Origin: Acidobacteriota bacterium
GTDB taxonomy: Bacteria > Acidobacteriota > UBA6911 > RPQK01 > JAJDTT01
Length of the DNA stretch: 64,000 nucleotides
Direction: 5' to 3'
Assembly: GCA_965263035.1 (NCBI GenBank)
Contig: OZ253580.1
Location: forward strand, 2,432,001 to 2,496,000
Part shown: positions 4,144 through 57,581 of the stretch, one piece after another
How the letters are laid out: each line of letters starts with the position of its first letter
Position numbering within the stretch: the first letter of the stretch is position 1
The notes under the pieces: generated by a model
The model's database searches: none
Told to the model about the DNA's origin: nothing
Seen by the model: the letters and a program-made list of their open reading frames with translations, nothing else
Position numbers and translations under genes: made by a program

Positions 4144-4219
4144 TGGTGGAGGTAATCGGATTCGAACCGACGACCCCCTGCTTGCAAAGCAGGTGCTCTT
4201 CCAACTGAGCTATACCCCC
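4144..4219 (-). tRNA. tRNA-Ala(TGC)
   Basis: GGGGGTATAGCTCAG...TTGCAA...GGTTCGAATCC...TACCTCCACCA cloverleaf, 76 nt. Confidence 0.97.
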
Positions 4220-4402
4220 ACCCTGGACCGAGAAATCTATAGCGAAAATCGCCGGAGCAATTGGCTTGCGTCCCCGGCGATTCACCCTATGAGCGTCCAG
4301 TTTAGCAGCCCCGGACAACGTGCGTCTCGGTCCGGAGCGGCGACCCTTAGTCGTCGAACTCCGGTGAAGCCATGGGGGGGGAGGGCGACTGGGCGACGGG
4401 AA

Positions 4403-5044
4403 GTCGCGGTAGGGACGCCGGTTGCCCAGCGCCCCCCGCGCAGATCCGTGCGTGCCCGTTAAGGCACACGGCTCCTACCTCAGGTAATGACGGCAGGTCG
4501 CGACGCCCGCCGTATCCGACCCCCGCCTGTGTCACGGTAGCCCGGCTCTGAGTCCGGTCCGTACTTTGGTGAGCCGAATTCCCCTTGGTTCCACCCCTTC
4601 GCTCCACCGACTCCGCAGAGAGTTCCCCCTCCTTGTTCGCCCGCTTCATCACTACTATGGGTGAATCCGATTGCTTCCTCTCTCCCCTCATGGGTTACGG
4701 CTTTCCCCTTTCCCACAAGGCCCCGGCTTTCGCCGGGGAGAGAGTAAGCCCTCCCAGGTCCCGACACCAGATGTACGTACGTGCATGGGTTCTTTGACAC
4801 CGCAGAGCCCGGCTGCCCCTCACCCTGGCGGTCCAGCCGGTGTTGCCTTCGACCGCGACTACAGCCTCGGCACTTCCGATCAGGGAGCTTTCGATGCTCA
4901 ATAGCCTGCCCATACGCACCGCTACCGACGCTTCGCCGACACCCTCACGGGTGCCCACGCACGGCTCGCGGAGAAACGTGGATGGTTAGTCCTTCGTTTC
5001 AGCGGACTTTCACCGCCTATCTTGTGCCAGTTAGCCTGGCGCAC
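4403..5044 (-). mobile_element. ORF-less group II intron, family A (IIB-like), copy A1, inserted in a REP
   Basis: 5' GUGCG; D5 GAGCCGUGUGCCUUAACGGGCACGCACGGAUCU (AGC triad); D6 ending ...CCGCGAC; 642 nt with no RT ORF; flanks rejoin to GGGCGACGGGAA|AGCCGCCGCTCC. Confidence 0.9.
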
Positions 5045-5059
5045 AGCCGCCGCTCCAAG

Positions 5060-7042
5060 TCACCCAGAGACGGTGCGGGGCCGGGTGAAGGGTTCTTCCA
5101 GGTATTTGCTTGCCTCGGCCTGGGCTCCATTGTAATCGATCTTGCTGTTTGCGGCTTTTCGGTATTCCGACTTGGCCCGCTCCCGCTGTCCCAGAATGTC
5201 GTAGATCTTTCCCAGGTGGATGTGGATCCAGGTCTCGATCCAGGGAGGATTCAGGTTCCCGTTGAGCGACTCCCGGAAGGCGTTGGCCGAATTGGAGAAG
5301 CTGTGCTGCTGGAAGAACACCTCACCCAGCCGATAGCTGGCCATGGAGCTTCTGGGGTCCATCTCCTGGGCCTTCTCGAACTCCTGAATCGCCGCCACGA
5401 ACTCCGACTTTCGCTGGTAGTCCTCGCCCAGCGCGATGTGGACCAGGACTCGCATCCGGTCCGAATCGTTCAGGATCTTCCCGTTGGGATCCACTATCAC
5501 CCGGAGGGGCCGGTCCTTCATATCGAGCTTGAACGAGGTGGAGCGGCCCCCGATGACAAATTTGTCGTCCTTGGCTTCGCCCTTGGTCTCGATTCGCAGG
5601 TCGGCCGGCATGCGGAAGAGGTCGATGTCCTGCTGCACCTGCCCGCGGATCTGGAAGTTCCCGTCTCTCATCTTGTAGATGTTGTAGTCGATCTTGAACT
5701 CGGGGACTCCGACCGACTCGACCCACTGGACGAAAAACCAGCCGTAGTCTTCGCCGGTCTTCCGTTGGACGAAGCCGACGAAGTCCTGGGTGCCGGTCTC
5801 CTGGTTTTTCCGCTCCTGGTACCAGTCCTTGAAATATCCGTTGAAATCGTCGCGGCCGATGAGCTGACCCAACATGTAGAGCACCCAGGCCCCCTTGCTT
5901 CCGACGATGGATTCGTACTGGTCGGAGCCGGGTTTGAAGGTGATGCCCTCGGTGATGGGCGCCAGCTTCTGGTGCTTCATGGCTTCCACCGCCTCACGTG
6001 CCAACGCGGCACGAAAATCGTCGGCGTGGTTCATCTCCATGTAGCGGAGAGCGGCATAGGTACAGAAGCCTTCGCGGAGGAAGACGTCCCGATACCCCTT
6101 CAGGCGCGCCGAGTAGCCCCACCAATGACGGGCCAGCCGTTTCGCCAACTCCATCACCGGCATCCGCTTGGCCTCGAGCAGTCCGGATTCCAGCAATATC
6201 AGGCCGAACGACCCGGAGGTCTCCAATTCCACCTTGCCCACCGCAACCAGGTCCAGACTGGACAGCGGGCTGGGTCCGTACTCCTGGTTGAAGAATTCCA
6301 GAATCTTTCCGATCTCCTGGGCCCAGGGAGCCAAATCGTCCGTGAAGTCCTCCCTTACGTGGAAGCTGACCGGGACCGGACCCTCATTGAAGGTCTGACG
6401 GAGAAATTGGGAGACCACCACGGGGATCTCGGTCAGGGGAAAGTCACTCGACCAATTGAAGACTTCGGTGACGCCCTCGGTTCGGATCGACTCCAGGCGG
6501 CCGGGCGCTACAGCCGAGAATCCGAGGGGAACCCGGACCGACACCCTGGCCGTTGCCGAGTCCAAGGGAAGCAGGTGCTGCGGGAACCAGCGGCCTTCGG
6601 TCAGGAGCAGGGCTCCGTCGGGGGAGATCACGGCCTTCTCGGTACGAGCGACATTCAGGAAGGCGAATTCATCGCCTTCCAGATTCCCCTCGATCCGGAA
6701 GCTGAGCGTCACCTCGGCCCCCGGATTGAGGGACTTGGGACCCTGAACCCTCATATTCTTCTGGCTCAGGTCGTCGAATCGGGTCGAGTATCGGTTCCCG
6801 TCCTGGTCCGTAGTCTCCAGAATGCTGAGCTGGTTGTTGAAATCGAAGGGAATGCTGAGGATGTTCTCCAAGACCTTGAAGGTGACCCGGGCCGTCCCCT
6901 GCAAGAAACGCTCCTGGGGATCCACCTCTACCTCGATGTCGTAATGGCTCACATCCAACAGACGGGGGCCGGTGGGAACCGTCTCCGCCCAGGCCAGAGC
7001 ATTCCCCAGAACCAGAAGAAAAAACGCAGTCAGCACTTTCAT
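5060..7042 (-). CDS. Secreted M1-aminopeptidase-like protein with C-terminal TPRs (catalytic motif degenerate)
   Basis: Signal peptide MKVLTAFFLL; HYDIEVEVDP N-domain; KRLARHWWG in place of HExxH; LREGFCTY; TPR-like repeats at the C-terminus. Confidence 0.75.
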   Translation of the reverse strand: MKVLTAFFLLVLGNALAWAETVPTGPRLLDVSHYDIEVEVDPQERFLQGTARVTFKVLENILSIPFDFNNQLSILETTDQDGNRYSTRFDDLSQKNMRVQGPKSLNPGAEVTLSFRIEGNLEGDEFAFLNVARTEKAVISPDGALLLTEGRWFPQHLLPLDSATARVSVRVPLGFSAVAPGRLESIRTEGVTEVFNWSSDFPLTEIPVVVSQFLRQTFNEGPVPVSFHVREDFTDDLAPWAQEIGKILEFFNQEYGPSPLSSLDLVAVGKVELETSGSFGLILLESGLLEAKRMPVMELAKRLARHWWGYSARLKGYRDVFLREGFCTYAALRYMEMNHADDFRAALAREAVEAMKHQKLAPITEGITFKPGSDQYESIVGSKGAWVLYMLGQLIGRDDFNGYFKDWYQERKNQETGTQDFVGFVQRKTGEDYGWFFVQWVESVGVPEFKIDYNIYKMRDGNFQIRGQVQQDIDLFRMPADLRIETKGEAKDDKFVIGGRSTSFKLDMKDRPLRVIVDPNGKILNDSDRMRVLVHIALGEDYQRKSEFVAAIQEFEKAQEMDPRSSMASYRLGEVFFQQHSFSNSANAFRESLNGNLNPPWIETWIHIHLGKIYDILGQRERAKSEYRKAANSKIDYNGAQAEASKYLEEPFTRPRTVSG

Positions 7043-7046
7043 GGCA

Positions 7047-8201
7047 TCACTCCTGCAGATAACGGCGGACCTGCATCGCGGCTTCACGATACGCGTTCTG
7101 CCGGCCCAGACGGCCGGCGGCCTGTCCCAATTTCTTCCTGACGCTCGCCCTCTCCCCCTCGTCAGTGAGGAGCCGTATCAGATAGCGGCCGATGGTCCGT
7201 CCCCGGGCTTGCCACTGAATGAACTCGGGTACGATGCGTTCGCCCATGATCAGGTTGGTCAGAGAGTAGGTCCGGGTCCGGACCAGCAGACGGGCGAATA
7301 TCCATGTCGGCCACGACATCCGGTAGACCATGGCGAACGGAACGCGCAGCAACGTGGCTTCCAATGTAGAGGTTCCACTTTTGATTATGGCACAGTCGGT
7401 CCGGGGCAGGACTTGGGCCGTATCCTCCTCCCGAAACTCCAGGGGCAAGGGCTTGCCTCGACTTCCCAGCCAGCGCCGGTAGACTCTCTTCAACTCCTCG
7501 AGCGGGACGTCCGGAGCCTTGACCACCCAGAACCGGGCCTGGCAACGGCGGGAAGCGTATCGGGCCGCGTCCAGCAACCGCGGGAAGATTCGCCGCACTT
7601 CCTGGATCCGGCTGCCCGGCAACAAGGCCACCACCGGTTCCTCCCGGGGTCCGGAACCGCCACCGGGCGCCACTTCTCGAAGCCGCTCCAACGACGGATT
7701 CCCCACGTAGTGAGCGTTGACGCCCCGAGACCGAAAGTATTCCTGCTCGAAGGGGAAGACGGCCAACACGAGGTCCACGTCCCTCCGAATCTGGCTGACG
7801 CGCGAAGAGCGCCAAGCCCAGACCTGGGGTGCAATGAAGTATACGACCGTCACACCCGCCTGTTTCAAGCGGCGGGCCAGCCTCAGATTGAAGTCGGGGA
7901 AATCGACCAGGATGGCGAGTCGGGTCCGGCGCAACCGGACCTCCCGGAGAATGTTCCGATACAGCTTCCAATAGCTGCAGAGATTCCCAGCCGCCTCCCA
8001 GGGGCCGATGGCGGCAAGTCTGGAAACGTCCTCCAGCAGGTCGACGCCTGCCTGGGACATCTTTTGGCTTCCGCTGCCGAACCACTGGATTCGGACCCCG
8101 GGGCAGAGCCGGTCGACTTCCCGGACCAGGGCCGCGGCGTGCTGTTCGCCGGAGGTTTCTCCGGCTACCACCAGAACGGAGACTCTTGGAATCACATCCA
8201 T
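7047..8201 (-). CDS. lpxB: Lipid-A-disaccharide synthase
   Basis: VAGETSG, VDFPDFN, APQVWAWR, LLPGSR and SGTSTLE motifs. Confidence 0.93.
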   Translation of the reverse strand: MDVIPRVSVLVVAGETSGEQHAAALVREVDRLCPGVRIQWFGSGSQKMSQAGVDLLEDVSRLAAIGPWEAAGNLCSYWKLYRNILREVRLRRTRLAILVDFPDFNLRLARRLKQAGVTVVYFIAPQVWAWRSSRVSQIRRDVDLVLAVFPFEQEYFRSRGVNAHYVGNPSLERLREVAPGGGSGPREEPVVALLPGSRIQEVRRIFPRLLDAARYASRRCQARFWVVKAPDVPLEELKRVYRRWLGSRGKPLPLEFREEDTAQVLPRTDCAIIKSGTSTLEATLLRVPFAMVYRMSWPTWIFARLLVRTRTYSLTNLIMGERIVPEFIQWQARGRTIGRYLIRLLTDEGERASVRKKLGQAAGRLGRQNAYREAAMQVRRYLQE

Positions 8202-15240: not shown

Positions 15241-15870
15241 GTGCGCCCGACATGGGCTGTATCTAAGGGATGAAAGATCCCAAGGGAGGTGATGGGACCA
15301 ACCCTAGCCGAACCGCAAGGCGTAGCCGCGAGGTGAAGCTGAAGGAAGCGGAAGGCAAACCCACGACCGCAGGAACACGAACCGGCAGCGAGGCCGGGTG
15401 CGGGCGGTGAGCTGGCGAGCAACAGCGAAACCCGAACCCCATCCAGACGTACCAGGTAGAGCCGGGCGGCCCGGGGGGAAAGATGCAGCACCTTACTCGG
15501 GGAGATCTCAAGGGTGAGAGCCTTTGAGAAGTCAGCAGAGGTCATAGTAGCGAAGAAGCCGGATAATGCCGGTGGAGCGAAGGACCGAAGGAGTCGGACG
15601 GGCCCTATGGTGGACTCGTCAGCGGGATCGCAACTACCTCCGGAAACGGGGCGGGGGGAGGCCCCTCGGACCCGGCACGGAAGGCCCAAGGGTGGAACCC
15701 GTCAAGCCGGAAGGGCGGAGATCAAGTCCCAGCGGCGGCGAAAACCGGAAAGAAAGGCCCTTTACGAGGCTCGAAAGAGCCTCGAGTGACTCCAACCGCC
15801 GGATACTGAAAACGGTACGTCCGGTGGTGTGGGAGGGTGCAGGGGCGCAATCCCCTGCACTCGACCCGAT
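15241..15870 (+). mobile_element. ORF-less group IIC intron, family B, copy B1
   Basis: 5' GUGCGCCCGACAUGGG; IIC-like D1-D3 (UGAAGGAAGCGGAAGGCAAAC, AAGUCAGCAGAGGUCAUAGUA); short D5 AACCGCCGGAUACUGAAAACGGUACGUCCGGUGGUG (CGC triad); 3' end CCCGAU; 630 nt, no RT. Confidence 0.92.
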
Positions 15871-23915: not shown

Positions 23916-24545
23916 ATCGGGTCGAGTGCAGGGGATTGCGCCCCTGCACCCTCCCACACCACCGGACGTACCGTTTTCAGTATCCGGCGGTTGGAGTCAC
24001 TCGAGGCTCTTTCGAGCCTCGTAAAGGGCCTTTCTTTCCGGTTTTCGCCGCCGCTGGGACTTGATCTCCGCCCTTCCGGCTTGACGGGTTCCACCCTTGG
24101 GCCTTCCGTGCCGGGTCCGAGGGGCCTCCCCCCGCCCCGTTTCCGGAGGTAGTTGCGATCCCGCTGACGAGTCCACCATAGGGCCCGTCCGACTCCTTCG
24201 GTCCTTCGCTCCACCGGCATTATCCGGCTTCTTCGCTACTATGACCTCTGCTGACTTCTCAAAGGCTCTCACCCTTGAGATCTCCCCGAGTAAGGTGCTG
24301 CATCTTTCCCCCCGGGCCGCCCGGCTCTACCTGGTACGTCTGGATGGGGTTCGGGTTTCGCTGTTGCTCGCCAGCTCACCGCCCGCACCCGGCCTCGCTG
24401 CCGGTTCGTGTTCCTGCGGTCGTGGGTTTGCCTTCCGCTTCCTTCAGCTTCACCTCGCGGCTACGCCTTGCGGTTCGGCTAGGGTTGGTCCCATCACCTC
24501 CCTTGGGATCTTTCATCCCTTAGATACAGCCCATGTCGGGCGCAC
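23916..24545 (-). mobile_element. ORF-less group IIC intron, family B, copy B2
   Basis: Reverse complement appears identical to B1 (630 nt); 5' exon ends GGCGACAAGAAAGTCGCCGCTC. Confidence 0.92.
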
Positions 24546-38496: not shown

Positions 38497-38574
38497 TGGC
38501 AGGCCAGGAGGGAATCGAACCCCCAACATCCGGTTTTGGAGACCGGCGCTCTACCAACTTTGAGCTACTGGCCT
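38497..38574 (-). tRNA. tRNA-Trp(CCA)
   Basis: AGGCCAGTAGCTCAA...CTCCAAA...GGTTCGATTCC...CTGGCCTGCCA. Confidence 0.96.
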
Positions 38575-38586
38575 ATTGAATATCAT

Positions 38587-38736
38587 TTATCGCGCCTCGC
38601 GGTGTGCCACGTGGCGACGACACCAACTGCAATATTTTCTCAGCTCGAGCCGCACGCGCTGAGTCTTCCTGTTCTTGGTCGTACTATAGTTCTTCCTGTG
38701 GCAAGCGGTGCATCGGAGGGTGATGATATCGCGCAT
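38587..38736 (-). CDS. rpmG: 50S ribosomal protein L33 (zinc-binding type; absent from the ORF track)
   Basis: Manual translation MRDIITLRCTACHRKNYSTTKNRKTQRVRLELRKYCSWCRRHVAHREAR. Confidence 0.95.
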   Translation of the reverse strand: MRDIITLRCTACHRKNYSTTKNRKTQRVRLELRKYCSWCRRHVAHREAR

Positions 38737-38740
38737 CGGC

Positions 38741-39928
<1,188 letters not shown>

Positions 39929-39967
39929 GATGGAACTCCTGAATCAGCCTTGCCTGGTCAGTTGGAA

Positions 39968-40039
<72 letters not shown>

Positions 40040-40079
40040 ACATACCCGTCTCCCCGGTTTCTGTCCACGTGGCCACTGT

Positions 40080-40155
40080 TGGAGCGGGAGACGGGACTCG
40101 AACCCGCGACCGATAGCTTGGAAGGCTATTACTCTACCAACTGAGTTACTCCCGC
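40080..40155 (-). tRNA. tRNA-Gly(TCC)
   Basis: GCGGGAGTAACTCAG...CTTCCAA...CTCCCGCTCCA. Confidence 0.96.
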
Positions 40156-40218
40156 CCTCGACCGTATGCGAAAAATCGAGTCCGTTCTCTCTAGATCCCG
40201 GAAGGGCGGCTTCTGGTC

Positions 40219-40303
40219 TGGAGGGGGCAGGATTCGAACCTGCGTAGCCCCGAAGGGCGACGGGTTTACAGCCCGTTGCCTTTATCCACTCGACCACCCC
40301 TCC
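40219..40303 (-). tRNA. tRNA-Tyr(GTA)
   Basis: GGAGGGG...CTGTAAA...long variable arm...CCCCTCCA. Confidence 0.95.
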
Positions 40304-40512
40304 TCATTGCATTCGGGGAATTCCTGATCCCCATCCGCCCCGTGGTGTCGCTCCTGCCAGTGCACCCCACCTTCCTGCAAAGCAGTCCCATTGCCAGGGA
40401 GGATACGGGAAGTGCCAAATTATACGCACTTCGGGGACCATATTCAAACTGAAAAATGGACGAACTGAGGCCGCCATTCCCGGCACCCGAGGGTAACCTT
40501 GCTGCGAGGGCG

Positions 40513-40584
40513 AGCTGGCGAAGGGAATCGAACCCCCAACCTACTGATTACAAATCAGTTGCTCTACCCTTGAGCTACGCCAGC
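40513..40584 (-). tRNA. tRNA-Thr(TGT)
   Basis: GCTGGCGTAGCTCAA...TTTGTAA...CGCCAGCT; no encoded CCA. Confidence 0.94.
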
Positions 40585-50158: not shown

Positions 50159-50801
50159 GTCGCGGTAGGGACACCGGTTGCCCAGCGCCCCCCGCGCAGA
50201 TCCGTGCGTGCCCGTTAAGGCACACGGCTCCTACCTCAGGTAGTGACGGCAGGTCGCGACGCCCGCCGTATCCGACCCCCGCCTGTGTCACGGTCATCCG
50301 GCTCTGGGTCCGGTCCGTACTTTGGTGAGCCGAATTCCCCTTGGCTCCATCCCTTCGCTCCACGGACTCCGCAGAAAGTTCCCCCTCTTTGTTCGCCCGC
50401 TTCATCACTACTATGGATGTATCCGATTGCTTGCTCTTTCCCCTCATGGGTTACGGCTTTCTCCTTTCCCACGAGGCCCCGGCTCTCGCCGGGGAGAGAC
50501 CAAGCCCTCCCAGGTCCCGACACCAGATGTACGTACGTGCATGGGTTCTTTGACACCGCGGAGCCCGGCCGTCCCTCACCTTGGCGGTCCAGCCGGTGTT
50601 GCCTTCGACCGCGACTACAGCCTCGGCACTTCCGATCAAGGAGCTTTCGATGCTCAATAGCCTGCCCATACGCACCGCTACCGACGCTTCGCCGACGCCC
50701 TCACGGACGCCCACGCACGGCTCGCGGAGAAACGTGGATGGTTAGTCCTTTCGTTTCAGCGGACTTTCACCGCCTATCTTGTGCCAGTTAGCCTGGCGCA
50801 C
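50159..50801 (-). mobile_element. ORF-less group II intron, family A, copy A2
   Basis: Close paralog of A1; flanks rejoin to GGGCGACAAGAA|AGTTGCCCCTCC. Confidence 0.9.
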
Positions 50802-50812
50802 AGTTGCCCCTC

Positions 50813-51487
50813 CTATTCCTTCTCGAAAAGGAGAAACTCCCTTTCTCTCAATCCGGCTCTCCTTGGATTCTCGCGGATATATTCCAGGCACTTCAAAAAG
50901 TGCAGAGGGTGCCGGATCAACCGATCCCAATAGTCTTTCTGCCAGATCTTGGCGTATTTTCCGGTCTTCTGGTTGATCACATGAGCCGTAAATCCCTTCC
51001 AGGATCTGACGATGTCTCTGAGATGATGAGAGCCAAGAGGGCGAAACAGCACATGGACATGGTTGGGCATCACGACGAAGGCGGCCAGTTCGTAACGCCG
51101 GCCGTCGAAATGCCGCAGTGAGTCAGCCACGACTCGGGCCAAGGCCGGATCCTTCAGGAGGCAGAACCCGTTCCCTTGATCCAGCCAGTCCTCGATTCGT
51201 CGAGAGAATTGATTGACGTAGCGTTTCGCCGTCCGCGCATCCCAGGGTCTTGGATGGTGTTTCAACCAGAATCTTCGTTCTTCCCGCCACTGATCCAGTT
51301 TGGCGTGTGGAAGCGAATCTCCCAGCCGCCAAGTCACGAAGACGAAGTGTTCACGCTTGTGCCAATGGGGCAGGCGGTTGTACCAAACGTCAATGGTTCC
51401 AGACTGATCAAAAGAGGAGCCGAAGCTTTCCAGCCACCAATTCTTCGAATCGCATGCCACAAATTTCCTAACGATCCCCTCACCCAA
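50813..51487 (-). CDS. REP-associated tyrosine transposase (RAYT, IS200-like Y1 HUH)
   Basis: LPHW...FVTWRL N-terminus, VVMPNHVH (HUH), SWKGFTA, IWQKDYWDRLIR and YIRENP; REP arrays on both sides; start uncertain. Confidence 0.88.
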   Translation of the reverse strand: MGEGIVRKFVACDSKNWWLESFGSSFDQSGTIDVWYNRLPHWHKREHFVFVTWRLGDSLPHAKLDQWREERRFWLKHHPRPWDARTAKRYVNQFSRRIEDWLDQGNGFCLLKDPALARVVADSLRHFDGRRYELAAFVVMPNHVHVLFRPLGSHHLRDIVRSWKGFTAHVINQKTGKYAKIWQKDYWDRLIRHPLHFLKCLEYIRENPRRAGLREREFLLFEKE

Positions 51488-56949: not shown

Positions 56950-57581
56950 ATCGGGTCGAGTACAGGGGATTGCGCCCCCGCACCCTCCCACACCACCGGA
57001 CGTACCGTTTTCAGTATCCGGCGGTTGGAGTCACCCGAGGCTCTTTCGAGCCTCGTACAGGGCCTTTCTTTCCGGTTTCCGCCGCCGCTGAGACTTGATC
57101 TCCGCCCTTCCGGCTTGCCGGCCTCCACCCGTGGGCCTTCCATGCCGGGTCCGAGGAGGGTTCCCCTCGCCCCGCTGTCGGAGGTGGTTGCGATCCCGCT
57201 GACGAGTCCACCATAGGGCCAGTCCGACTCCTTCGGTCCTTCGCTCCACCGGCATTACCCGGCTTCTTCGCTACTACGACCTCTGCTGACTTCTCAAGGG
57301 CTCTCACCCTTGAGATCTCCCCGAGTAAGGTGCTGCATCTTTCCCCCCGGGCCGCCCGGCTCTACCTGATGCGTCTGGATGGGGTTCGGGTTTCGCTGTT
57401 GCTCGCCAGCTCACCGCCCGCACCCGGCCTCACTGCCGGTTCGTGTTCCTGCGATCGTGGGTTTGCCTTCCGCTTCCTTCAGCTTCGCCTCGCGGCTTCG
57501 CCTTGCGGTTCGGCTAGGGTTGATCCCATCACCTCCCTTGGGATCTTTCATCCCTTAGATACAGCCCATGTCCGGGCGTAC
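56950..57581 (-). mobile_element. ORF-less group IIC intron, family B, copy B3 (diverged)
   Basis: Paralog of B1/B2; 5' end GUACGCCCGGACAUGGG; 5' exon ends AAGAAAGTCGCCGCTC. Confidence 0.88.

Follow-up and report, generated by a model that had tools for sequence, protein, structure and literature searches.

The locus

The window analysed here is a 64,000-nt stretch of an Acidobacteriota bacterium genome (GenBank assembly GCA_965263035.1, contig OZ253580.1, positions 2,432,001 to 2,496,000, read on the forward strand). On its minus strand, between a peptidase gene and a tRNA gene, a 642-nt element lies in the loop of a repetitive extragenic palindrome (REP). In all likelihood the element is a group II intron of IIB-like type whose reverse transcriptase (RT) gene has been deleted, and whose capacity to splice and to move we infer from its sequence. 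A previous reading, made from the letters alone (the sequence-only reading), had placed such an intron without an open reading frame (ORF) at 4403-5056. The intron part of that span, 4403-5044, holds good, as do both ends of the 642-nt ribozyme core; the extension to 5056 does not, because it adds 12 nt of 5′ exon. The copy treated here is called c2 (A1 of that reading) and the second full copy in the window c6 (its A2). Features are collected in Table 1.

Table 1. Coordinates of the intron, its parts, its target and other features. Positions are those of the window, except that those marked C1 are contig coordinates. D, domain; EBS, exon-binding site; IBS, intron-binding site.
Feature	Position	Strand	Remarks
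ORF-less group II intron, copy c2	4403-5044	-	642 nt; homology among copies starts and stops exactly here
D1 part, Rfam RF02005 (group-II-D1D4-6)	4788-5010	-	165.4 bits, cut-off 49; model 1-225 of 225
Probable D5 and D6, bulged A in CCUACCGC	4403-4476	-	RF00029, 36.9 bits, E 1.8e-5, cut-off 40
EBS1 AGUCGC	4855-4860	-	intron 185-190; terminal hairpin loop; six variants, each complementary to the last 6 exon bases
EBS2 GCUCC	4884-4888	-	intron 157-161; internal loop, 5′ strand; three variants complementary to exon -12 to -8
EBS3 A	4795	-	intron 250; unpaired, just 3′ of the D1d helix
IBS2 GGAGC, REP foot	5052-5056	-
IBS1 GCGGCU, REP 5′ arm and first loop base	5045-5050	-	one G-U pair with EBS1
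3′ exon start TTCCCGTCGCC	4392-4402	-	IBS3 (T at 4402), rest of REP loop, REP 3′ arm
Deletion junction, intron 547/551	4494-4498	-	18 nt before the D5 match; RT gene removed
Relic frame, 114 aa, running out of the intron	4347-4691	-	codons 1-56 and ~485-519 of the longest parental ORF
M1 peptidase with TPR repeats, upstream host gene	5060-7087	-	stop codon 15 nt before c2, same strand
tRNA gene downstream of c2	4147-4219	-
Intron copy c6	50159-50801	-	643 nt; 95% identical to c2; same REP position
RAYT-type tyrosine transposase gene	50813-51487	-	Y1_Tnp, 35.1 bits (cut-off 23); ends 11 nt before c6
B family, second, unrelated ORF-less group II intron	15241-15870, 23916-24545, ~56950-57580	+, -, -	RF02001 and RF01998; D5-D6 ~39 bits
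R family, RT-bearing introns	C1:983531-985490, 5052918-5057068, 5537400-5538851, 5841511-5843436

Ends, domains and copies of the intron

On the minus strand c2 reads GUGCG from 5044 and CTACCGCGAC / CUACCGCGAC up to 4403, giving 642 nt. Its first five bases (5044-5040) have the form GUGYG, as do those of copy c7 (GUGUG). The element keeps the D1 RNA domain and probably D5 and D6. Scanning with the Rfam group II models, as the sequence-only reading had suggested, returned the D1 match, with a twin to the same model at 50544-50767, and a weaker match that covers RF00029 from 1 to 77 (GAGCCGU...ACGGAUC and CCUACCGCGAC) and came from a local, permissive scan. Since that second match lies under its cut-off, default Rfam annotation would report the D1 piece alone, which leaves an annotation gap for elements of this kind. 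A consensus structure from RNAalifold has standard pairs in 99.1% of cells and seven pairs changed on both sides, the fold being predicted from the same 17 distinct ORF-less sequences that were used for scoring the pairs.

The genome is a single contig of 6,198,070 bases with no N. A BLAST search of it gave seven full copies (92-100% identity) and a 67-nt 5′ fragment. Copies c1, c2 and c3 are 100% identical by blastn, with no difference in the alignment, and two further copies are nearly so. The similarity between c2 and c6 coincides exactly with the predicted intron, from its first base to its last.

The REP target

Six full copies and the fragment follow the 5′ exon pattern GGAG[G/C]GGC[G/A][A/G]CT and are continued by T(T)C..GTCGCC, so that the first loop T of the hairpin GGCGAC-T^TTCTT-GTCGCC, the REP, immediately precedes the insertion point. 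The sequence-only reading had put both window copies at one nucleotide of the REP loop; this is so, and outside the window the fragment and four more full copies share it. Insertion junctions are base-exact at every site. The exact REP 18-mer GGCGACTTTCTTGTCGCC (GGCGAC-TTTCTT-GTCGCC) occurs 87 times in the genome and a looser hairpin pattern 178 times. Intron-free sites with foot, arm and T number ~180, against six that are occupied, and REP clusters are situated after stop codons. Three further REPs are clustered after c6, next to a RAYT-type gene; among NCBIfam models REP_Tyr_transpos matches this gene best, at 73.9 bits, short of its cut-off of 80. By these sequence attributes, a short multicopy extragenic palindrome with an adjoining RAYT-type gene, the repeat is a genuine REP.

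Copy c7 (92% identity) is found in a different hairpin, GGGGTGCCC^CTTGTGGGTGCCC; a related exact hairpin, GGGCACCCCTTGTGGGTGCCC, occurs eight times in the genome. Together with the loci L028, L043, L044 and L059, c7 (C1:680748-681390) makes up a sub-family with EBS1 GGGUGC or GGUCGC and EBS2 CCUAC. Its target is the hairpin GGGCACCC-CTTGT-GGGTGCCC or the GCGACC form of that hairpin, with insertion right after the 5′ arm.

Exon-binding sites

AGUCGC and GCUCC had been proposed as EBS1 and EBS2, complementary to the REP. Once D1 is folded both map to EBS positions, and RNAalifold and the Rfam alignment agree on where: AGUCGC (4855-4860) in the terminal loop of the hairpin GCCGAGGCUG-UAGUCG-CGGUCGAAGGC, and GCUCC (4884-4888) in the 5′ strand of an internal loop. 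The 5′ exons end in GGAGCG-GCGGCT at c2 and in GGAGGG-GCAACT at c6, in keeping with the GCGGCU and GCAACU previously given for A1 and A2.

To these single pairings we can add compensatory change. Copies with both ends (37) were tabulated from six same-genus genomes, this genome and five others. EBS1 takes the forms AGUCGC, AAUCGC, AGUCCC, GGGUGC, GGUCGC and GGAUGC, with the matching IBS1 opposite each; EBS2 is GCUCC, CCUAC or CAUGC opposite GGAG[C/G], GUAGG and GCAUG, respectively. Both proposed sites thus co-change with the exon. EBS3 was newly mapped by scanning all D1 columns for complementarity to the first base of the 3′ exon: intron position 250 is A, G or U opposite T, C or A at exon +1 in 37/37 copies, the sole other column being a near-constant G/U. 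The base before EBS1, at the place of the IIA delta, is U in all copies although exon +1 varies. An EBS3 far from EBS1 and an invariant base next to EBS1 point to a IIB layout, not IIA. With EBS2 present and EBS3 in D1 away from EBS1, the intron is by its sequence IIB-like, as had been thought.

Of the 432 EBS/IBS positions at 36 distinct insertion sites, 410 are paired, against a mean of 357 (standard deviation 6.2) for shuffled combinations, and none of 10,000 shuffles reaches 410; since the copies are kin, this is a descriptive control and not a formal probability. Judged from the co-changes, EBS1-3 pair with 12 bases of the REP, namely GGAGC (IBS2), GCGACU (IBS1) and the next loop T (IBS3).

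Full-length relatives and origin of the ORF-less form

The sequence-only reading envisaged a full-length relative carrying an RT gene. Such relatives exist in congeners, most of them at the same REP position, and not in the genome itself. In the congener G004 the BLAST match was split by ~1.28 kb at a locus where an ORF of 499 aa encodes a YADD motif. We fetched nine full-length copies from G002 and five from G007, each of 1,917 nt with a 519-aa ORF, and three from G004, of 1,912 nt with the 499-aa ORF. For the 519-aa protein, the TIGR04416 model of group II reverse transcriptase/maturase gives 351 bits (cut-off 300). Among Pfam families the protein has RVT_1 only (GIIM has E 1.1), and neither HNH nor another endonuclease family was found by Pfam. 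All 14 copies of G002 and G007 share the REP position of the ORF-less copies; in 13 of them the preceding REP foot and arm are exactly of the GGAG[G/C/A]G type, and the remaining one has a variant foot (GGACA). In the three G004 copies EBS1, EBS2 and EBS3 are retargeted to a non-REP site. The lineage is present in 8/8 same-genus genomes searched, and from this sequence footprint most of its copies home to the REP.

Alignment with the full-length form locates the deletion: intron 1-547 corresponds to full-length 1-552 and intron 551-642 to 1826-1917, so positions 553-1825 (1,273 nt) are missing. D4, taken for a stub by the sequence-only reading, is therefore not merely that. The same deleted architecture is seen in all 20 ORF-less copies fetched. 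As for the lack of an ORF, the sole long frame in the intron is the 114-aa relic, in which no Pfam family was found. It is open in 7/7 copies here and broken in 11/13 ORF-less copies of relatives; we rejected it as a functional peptide on this ground and see in it a vestige of the parental ORF, no gene in its own right.

Within the first 520 nt, identity among the ORF-less copies of four species is 89-100%, whereas between them and full-length copies it is only 83-88%, even inside G007, which has both forms. Since the ORF-less copies are closer to each other than to the full-length ones even there, the comparison argues for one deletion followed by a separate lineage: the ORF-less form arose by a single loss of 1,273 nt from an RT-encoding intron of ~1.9 kb and now spans at least four species.

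Two arrangements were seen among the relatives' copies. At L027 (G007) neighbouring REPs of a single cluster carry two ORF-less copies, separated by 564 nt and with identical 3′ exons. L029 (G007) and L045 (G006) each hold a 755-nt ORF-less variant, in which intron 1-113 is followed by 97-642, which suggests a duplication or insertion within the intron, close to its 5′ end; the locus is apparently the same in the two genomes.

A collection-wide search with the RT protein gave 23 loci, all in metagenome-assembled genome records of Acidobacteriota bacterium. Outside the genus the D5-D6 end alone was matched, at 75-79% identity, in 6/52 other genomes; these matches look like other introns.

Probable movement of the copies

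The REPs around the identical copies c1, c2 and c3 are not the same in arm and loop (GCGACT^TTCTT, GCGGCT^TTCCC and GCGACT^TCCAG), so the intron appears to have moved without its REP. Orthologous sites were compared for c1, c2 and c4. The c2 site, between the M1 peptidase and tRNA genes, has REPs but no intron in 5/5 congeners, with the peptidase-REP-tRNA layout in four. The c1 site is intron-free in 5/5, and at the c4 site no intron match was found at any of the five congener loci, the 3′ flank being matched in four. At the three empty sites the relatives' flanks are 87-95% identical. The 5′ flank of c3 is itself a multicopy element, so orthology of that site is not assignable. Identity of the copies, together with sites that are empty in relatives with flanks this similar, suggests that mobility is recent on that scale. 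Replication-strand bias was considered as further evidence and discarded: all eight copies, fragment included, run along the fork by GC skew, but so do 69-76% of the REPs, which gives a chance expectation of ~0.1 for the seven REP-borne copies.

The missing helper and alternative explanations

The element is very probably a non-autonomous, RT-deleted member of a IIB-like lineage that has the REP as its homing site. Because REPs sit just after stop codons, the intron would be transcribed together with the upstream gene. Splicing would be aided by a group II reverse transcriptase/maturase produced elsewhere, and the resulting ribonucleoprotein would reverse-splice into another REP copy, whose RNA insert would then be copied into DNA (retrohoming). 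With a protein that lacks an endonuclease, retrohoming could be primed at the replication fork. The sequence-only reading had likewise proposed a non-autonomous intron with RT supplied in trans. RT-bearing relatives in the genus favour that proposal, and the lack of a cognate RT in the intron's own genome goes against it.

Several points weigh on the other side. A tblastn search of the closed 6.2-Mb contig found no cognate RT, returning relic codons and the RTs of two other intron families, R and B, at 31-38% identity. The TIGR04416 match starts at residue 83, and the start codon of the parental ORF is uncertain. The D5-D6 score misses the Rfam cut-off, and the map of D2-D4 is an RNAalifold prediction whose boundaries are not trusted in detail. 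As to the first point, completeness of the one-contig assembly is 97%, which leaves room for a cognate RT on a plasmid. Both forms coexist in G007, and another congener record has one RT at 91% identity. If the cognate RT is absent from this organism, its copies are either recently stranded or driven by a non-cognate intron RT.

That the copies are stranded is quite possible, though somewhat less likely than not. The cognate RT intron would have been lost recently, leaving copies that no longer move and that, in their REPs, either can only splice or are inert. It would explain the tblastn result, it agrees with the published statement that bacterial introns lacking an ORF are nearly always accompanied by a related protein of intron origin (PMC4424553), and only six of ~186 matching REP sites are occupied. 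Against it stand three copies that are 100% identical over 642 nt with two more nearly so, three insertion sites that are empty in relatives, and paired ribozyme positions that have not decayed.

A resident protein of the R family (438-471 aa) or the B family (515 aa) could instead splice and mobilize the intron through relaxed specificity. R- and B-family proteins are intact in several copies, 'driver' intron proteins of relaxed specificity are documented in Thermosynechococcus elongatus (PMC2882425), and copy identity and empty sites suggest recent mobility without a cognate RT. We think this unlikely, given how distant the candidate proteins are from the cognate RT (the 31-38% above), given that R-family RNA has no blastn similarity to the ORF-less intron, and given that in the text of PMC2882425 driver and clients are close relatives.

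The R family consists of four RT-bearing introns of ~2,006 nt whose target is ATTTCTCA or ATATCTCA; RF02005 scores just 22-25 bits in them, and one copy is split by an insert of ~2.2 kb. As a parent of the ORF-less intron it was rejected, for want of the blastn similarity just mentioned and because it targets ATTTCTCA, not REPs. The B family has 18 copies of exactly 630 nt in the genome, two full-length copies of 1,848 nt with a 515-aa RT, and two with insertions. A hairpin and GCTC precede 23/25 of its motif matches, the exon resuming with C; most of these 23 are the REP described above, taken from its other strand (GGCGACAAGAAAGTCGCCGCTC^). In its insertion directly behind a stem-loop the B family resembles class C (IIC) introns. 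At L001 (C1:3066875-3070028) c1 is followed within ~110 nt by an interrupted B-family copy (2,401 nt), so that both halves of one REP doublet are apparently occupied by different introns. It is conceivable, if rather doubtful, that REPs form a genus-wide landing platform used on opposite strands by two unrelated ORF-less families, and that the intron is still mobile by way of an RT of a different class or with little or no dedicated protein. If so, an RT of another class acting as driver would be an early step toward a common trans-acting apparatus for splicing and mobility.

It is most improbable that the element is a domesticated ribozyme, a protein-free RNA/DNA endonuclease like the HYERs, rather than a mobile intron. 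The resemblance is real: HYERs are ORF-less group II-derived RNAs of ~640 nt (HYER1 has 637 nt) with a 6-nt target recognition site (Liu et al. 2024, as reviewed in PMC12990946), and the element is ORF-less, multicopy and of similar length, with a 6-nt guide loop. As described in that text, however, HYERs are IIC and defined by hydrolytic cleavage, whereas the intron here is IIB-like with EBS2, and these IIB features argue against HYER membership. Each copy, moreover, sits exactly at its own complementary target, a reverse-splicing footprint, and RT-bearing parents occupy the same sites.

Passage of REP-plus-intron units by the RAYT transposase or by homologous recombination, with no reverse splicing, can practically be dismissed: a RAYT-type gene does adjoin c6 and REPs are multicopy, but identical introns lie in REPs differing in arm and loop, EBS and IBS co-change even at the non-REP targets in G004, and the junctions are base-exact at every site.

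Relation to known introns

The closest parallel to the non-autonomous, REP-homing intron proposed here is offered by the ORF-less TeI3 introns of T. elongatus (Mohr, Ghanem and Lambowitz 2010, PMC2882425). As that paper's text describes them, they too share one ancestral D4 deletion, N- and C-terminal ORF remnants and common breakpoints; their EBSs have likewise diversified into sub-families, and RT is supplied in trans, as we propose here. The TeI3 helpers are closely related and encoded in the same genome, whereas here no cognate RT was found; TeI3 targets are diverse unique sites and other introns, whereas here they are a REP family. Also unlike in TeI3, the ORF-less lineage here extends over several species, and a divergence of 12-17% separates it from the full-length introns.

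IIC introns (Zimmerly and Semper 2015, PMC4424553) have in common with this one a multicopy hairpin target outside genes and a protein without endonuclease. According to that review they insert after a stem-loop (terminators, attC) and use a short IBS1 and IBS3 only. The present intron inserts inside the loop, has 12 bases read by EBS1, EBS2 and EBS3, and shows EBS2 co-changing with the exon; membership in class IIC was rejected on account of the insertion inside the loop and the presence of EBS2.

REPs are also a preferred landing site of the insertion sequences ISPa11, ISPpu9, ISPpu10 and IS1397 (Tobes and Pareja 2006, PMC1525189). These are DNA transposons with recognition by protein, unlike the case here, where recognition would be by RNA base pairing and six of the seven full copies share one fixed nucleotide. 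The same text reports a group II intron of P. putida KT2440 that is REP-associated in 2/9 copies. C.te.I1 of Clostridium tetani (PMC4424553) resembles our intron in being ORF-less in a genome that lacks a related intron protein; it is described as a single copy in a gene with alternative splicing, whereas here the copies are multiple and in intergenic repeats, and, unlike for C.te.I1, unrelated intron RTs are present in the genome.

ORF-less bacterial introns are rare (PMC4424553), and by tblastn over the whole contig this genome departs from their usual coexistence with a related intron protein. That review lists unique homing sites, terminators and attC as the target specificities of bacterial group II introns. 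In the open-access texts searched, no group II intron lineage that homes to REPs was found described, the 2/9 copies of P. putida (PMC1525189) being the nearest. The ORF-less deletion type is thus known, and what differs here is the REP target, the multi-species deleted lineage and the absent cognate helper.

REPs read by base pairing may accordingly represent a fourth target type for bacterial group II introns, and the deleted form a multi-species lineage that depends on its full-length parent much as a short interspersed element (SINE) depends on a long one (LINE). With ~180 neutral, transcribed REP targets per genome, the family would be a natural system for studying proliferation without harm to genes, and also for asking how introns without an ORF become reliant on proteins that act in trans. 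Identical copies in a genome where no cognate RT was found offer a concrete test of relaxed helper specificity.

Genomic context and transcription

Copies c2 and c6 begin 15 and 11 nt past the stop codons of same-strand genes, which were verified by Pfam for these two copies, and co-transcription is plausible from this placement. Calling the gene context of all seven copies by stop-to-stop ORFs was uninformative, as this GC-rich genome has open frames on both strands. No exon-exon joint across 4403-5044 was seen when contigs of the RNA runs X13, X15 and X17, and of X1 (a run of unknown kind), were compared with 4150-5400 of the window. This is informative neither way, since absence is not something that contigs can show, DNA may be present in the RNA libraries, and the intron exists in several copies. 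One contig of the metatranscriptome X17 (depth 18) joins the second-last base of the intron (4404) to the first (5044) with one odd letter in the middle. As a single contig it is no more than a lead; it could stem from an excised intron circle or from a head-to-tail arrangement in DNA; with six differences in 77 bases, it comes from a relative.

Two minor features complete the survey. A weak RVT_1 match (30.7 bits) lies at C1:1811265-1811774 on the minus strand, in a 1,253-aa open frame with no intron RNA match linked to it. Positions 38500-40584 of the window hold, on the minus strand, an ordinary cluster of five tRNA genes.

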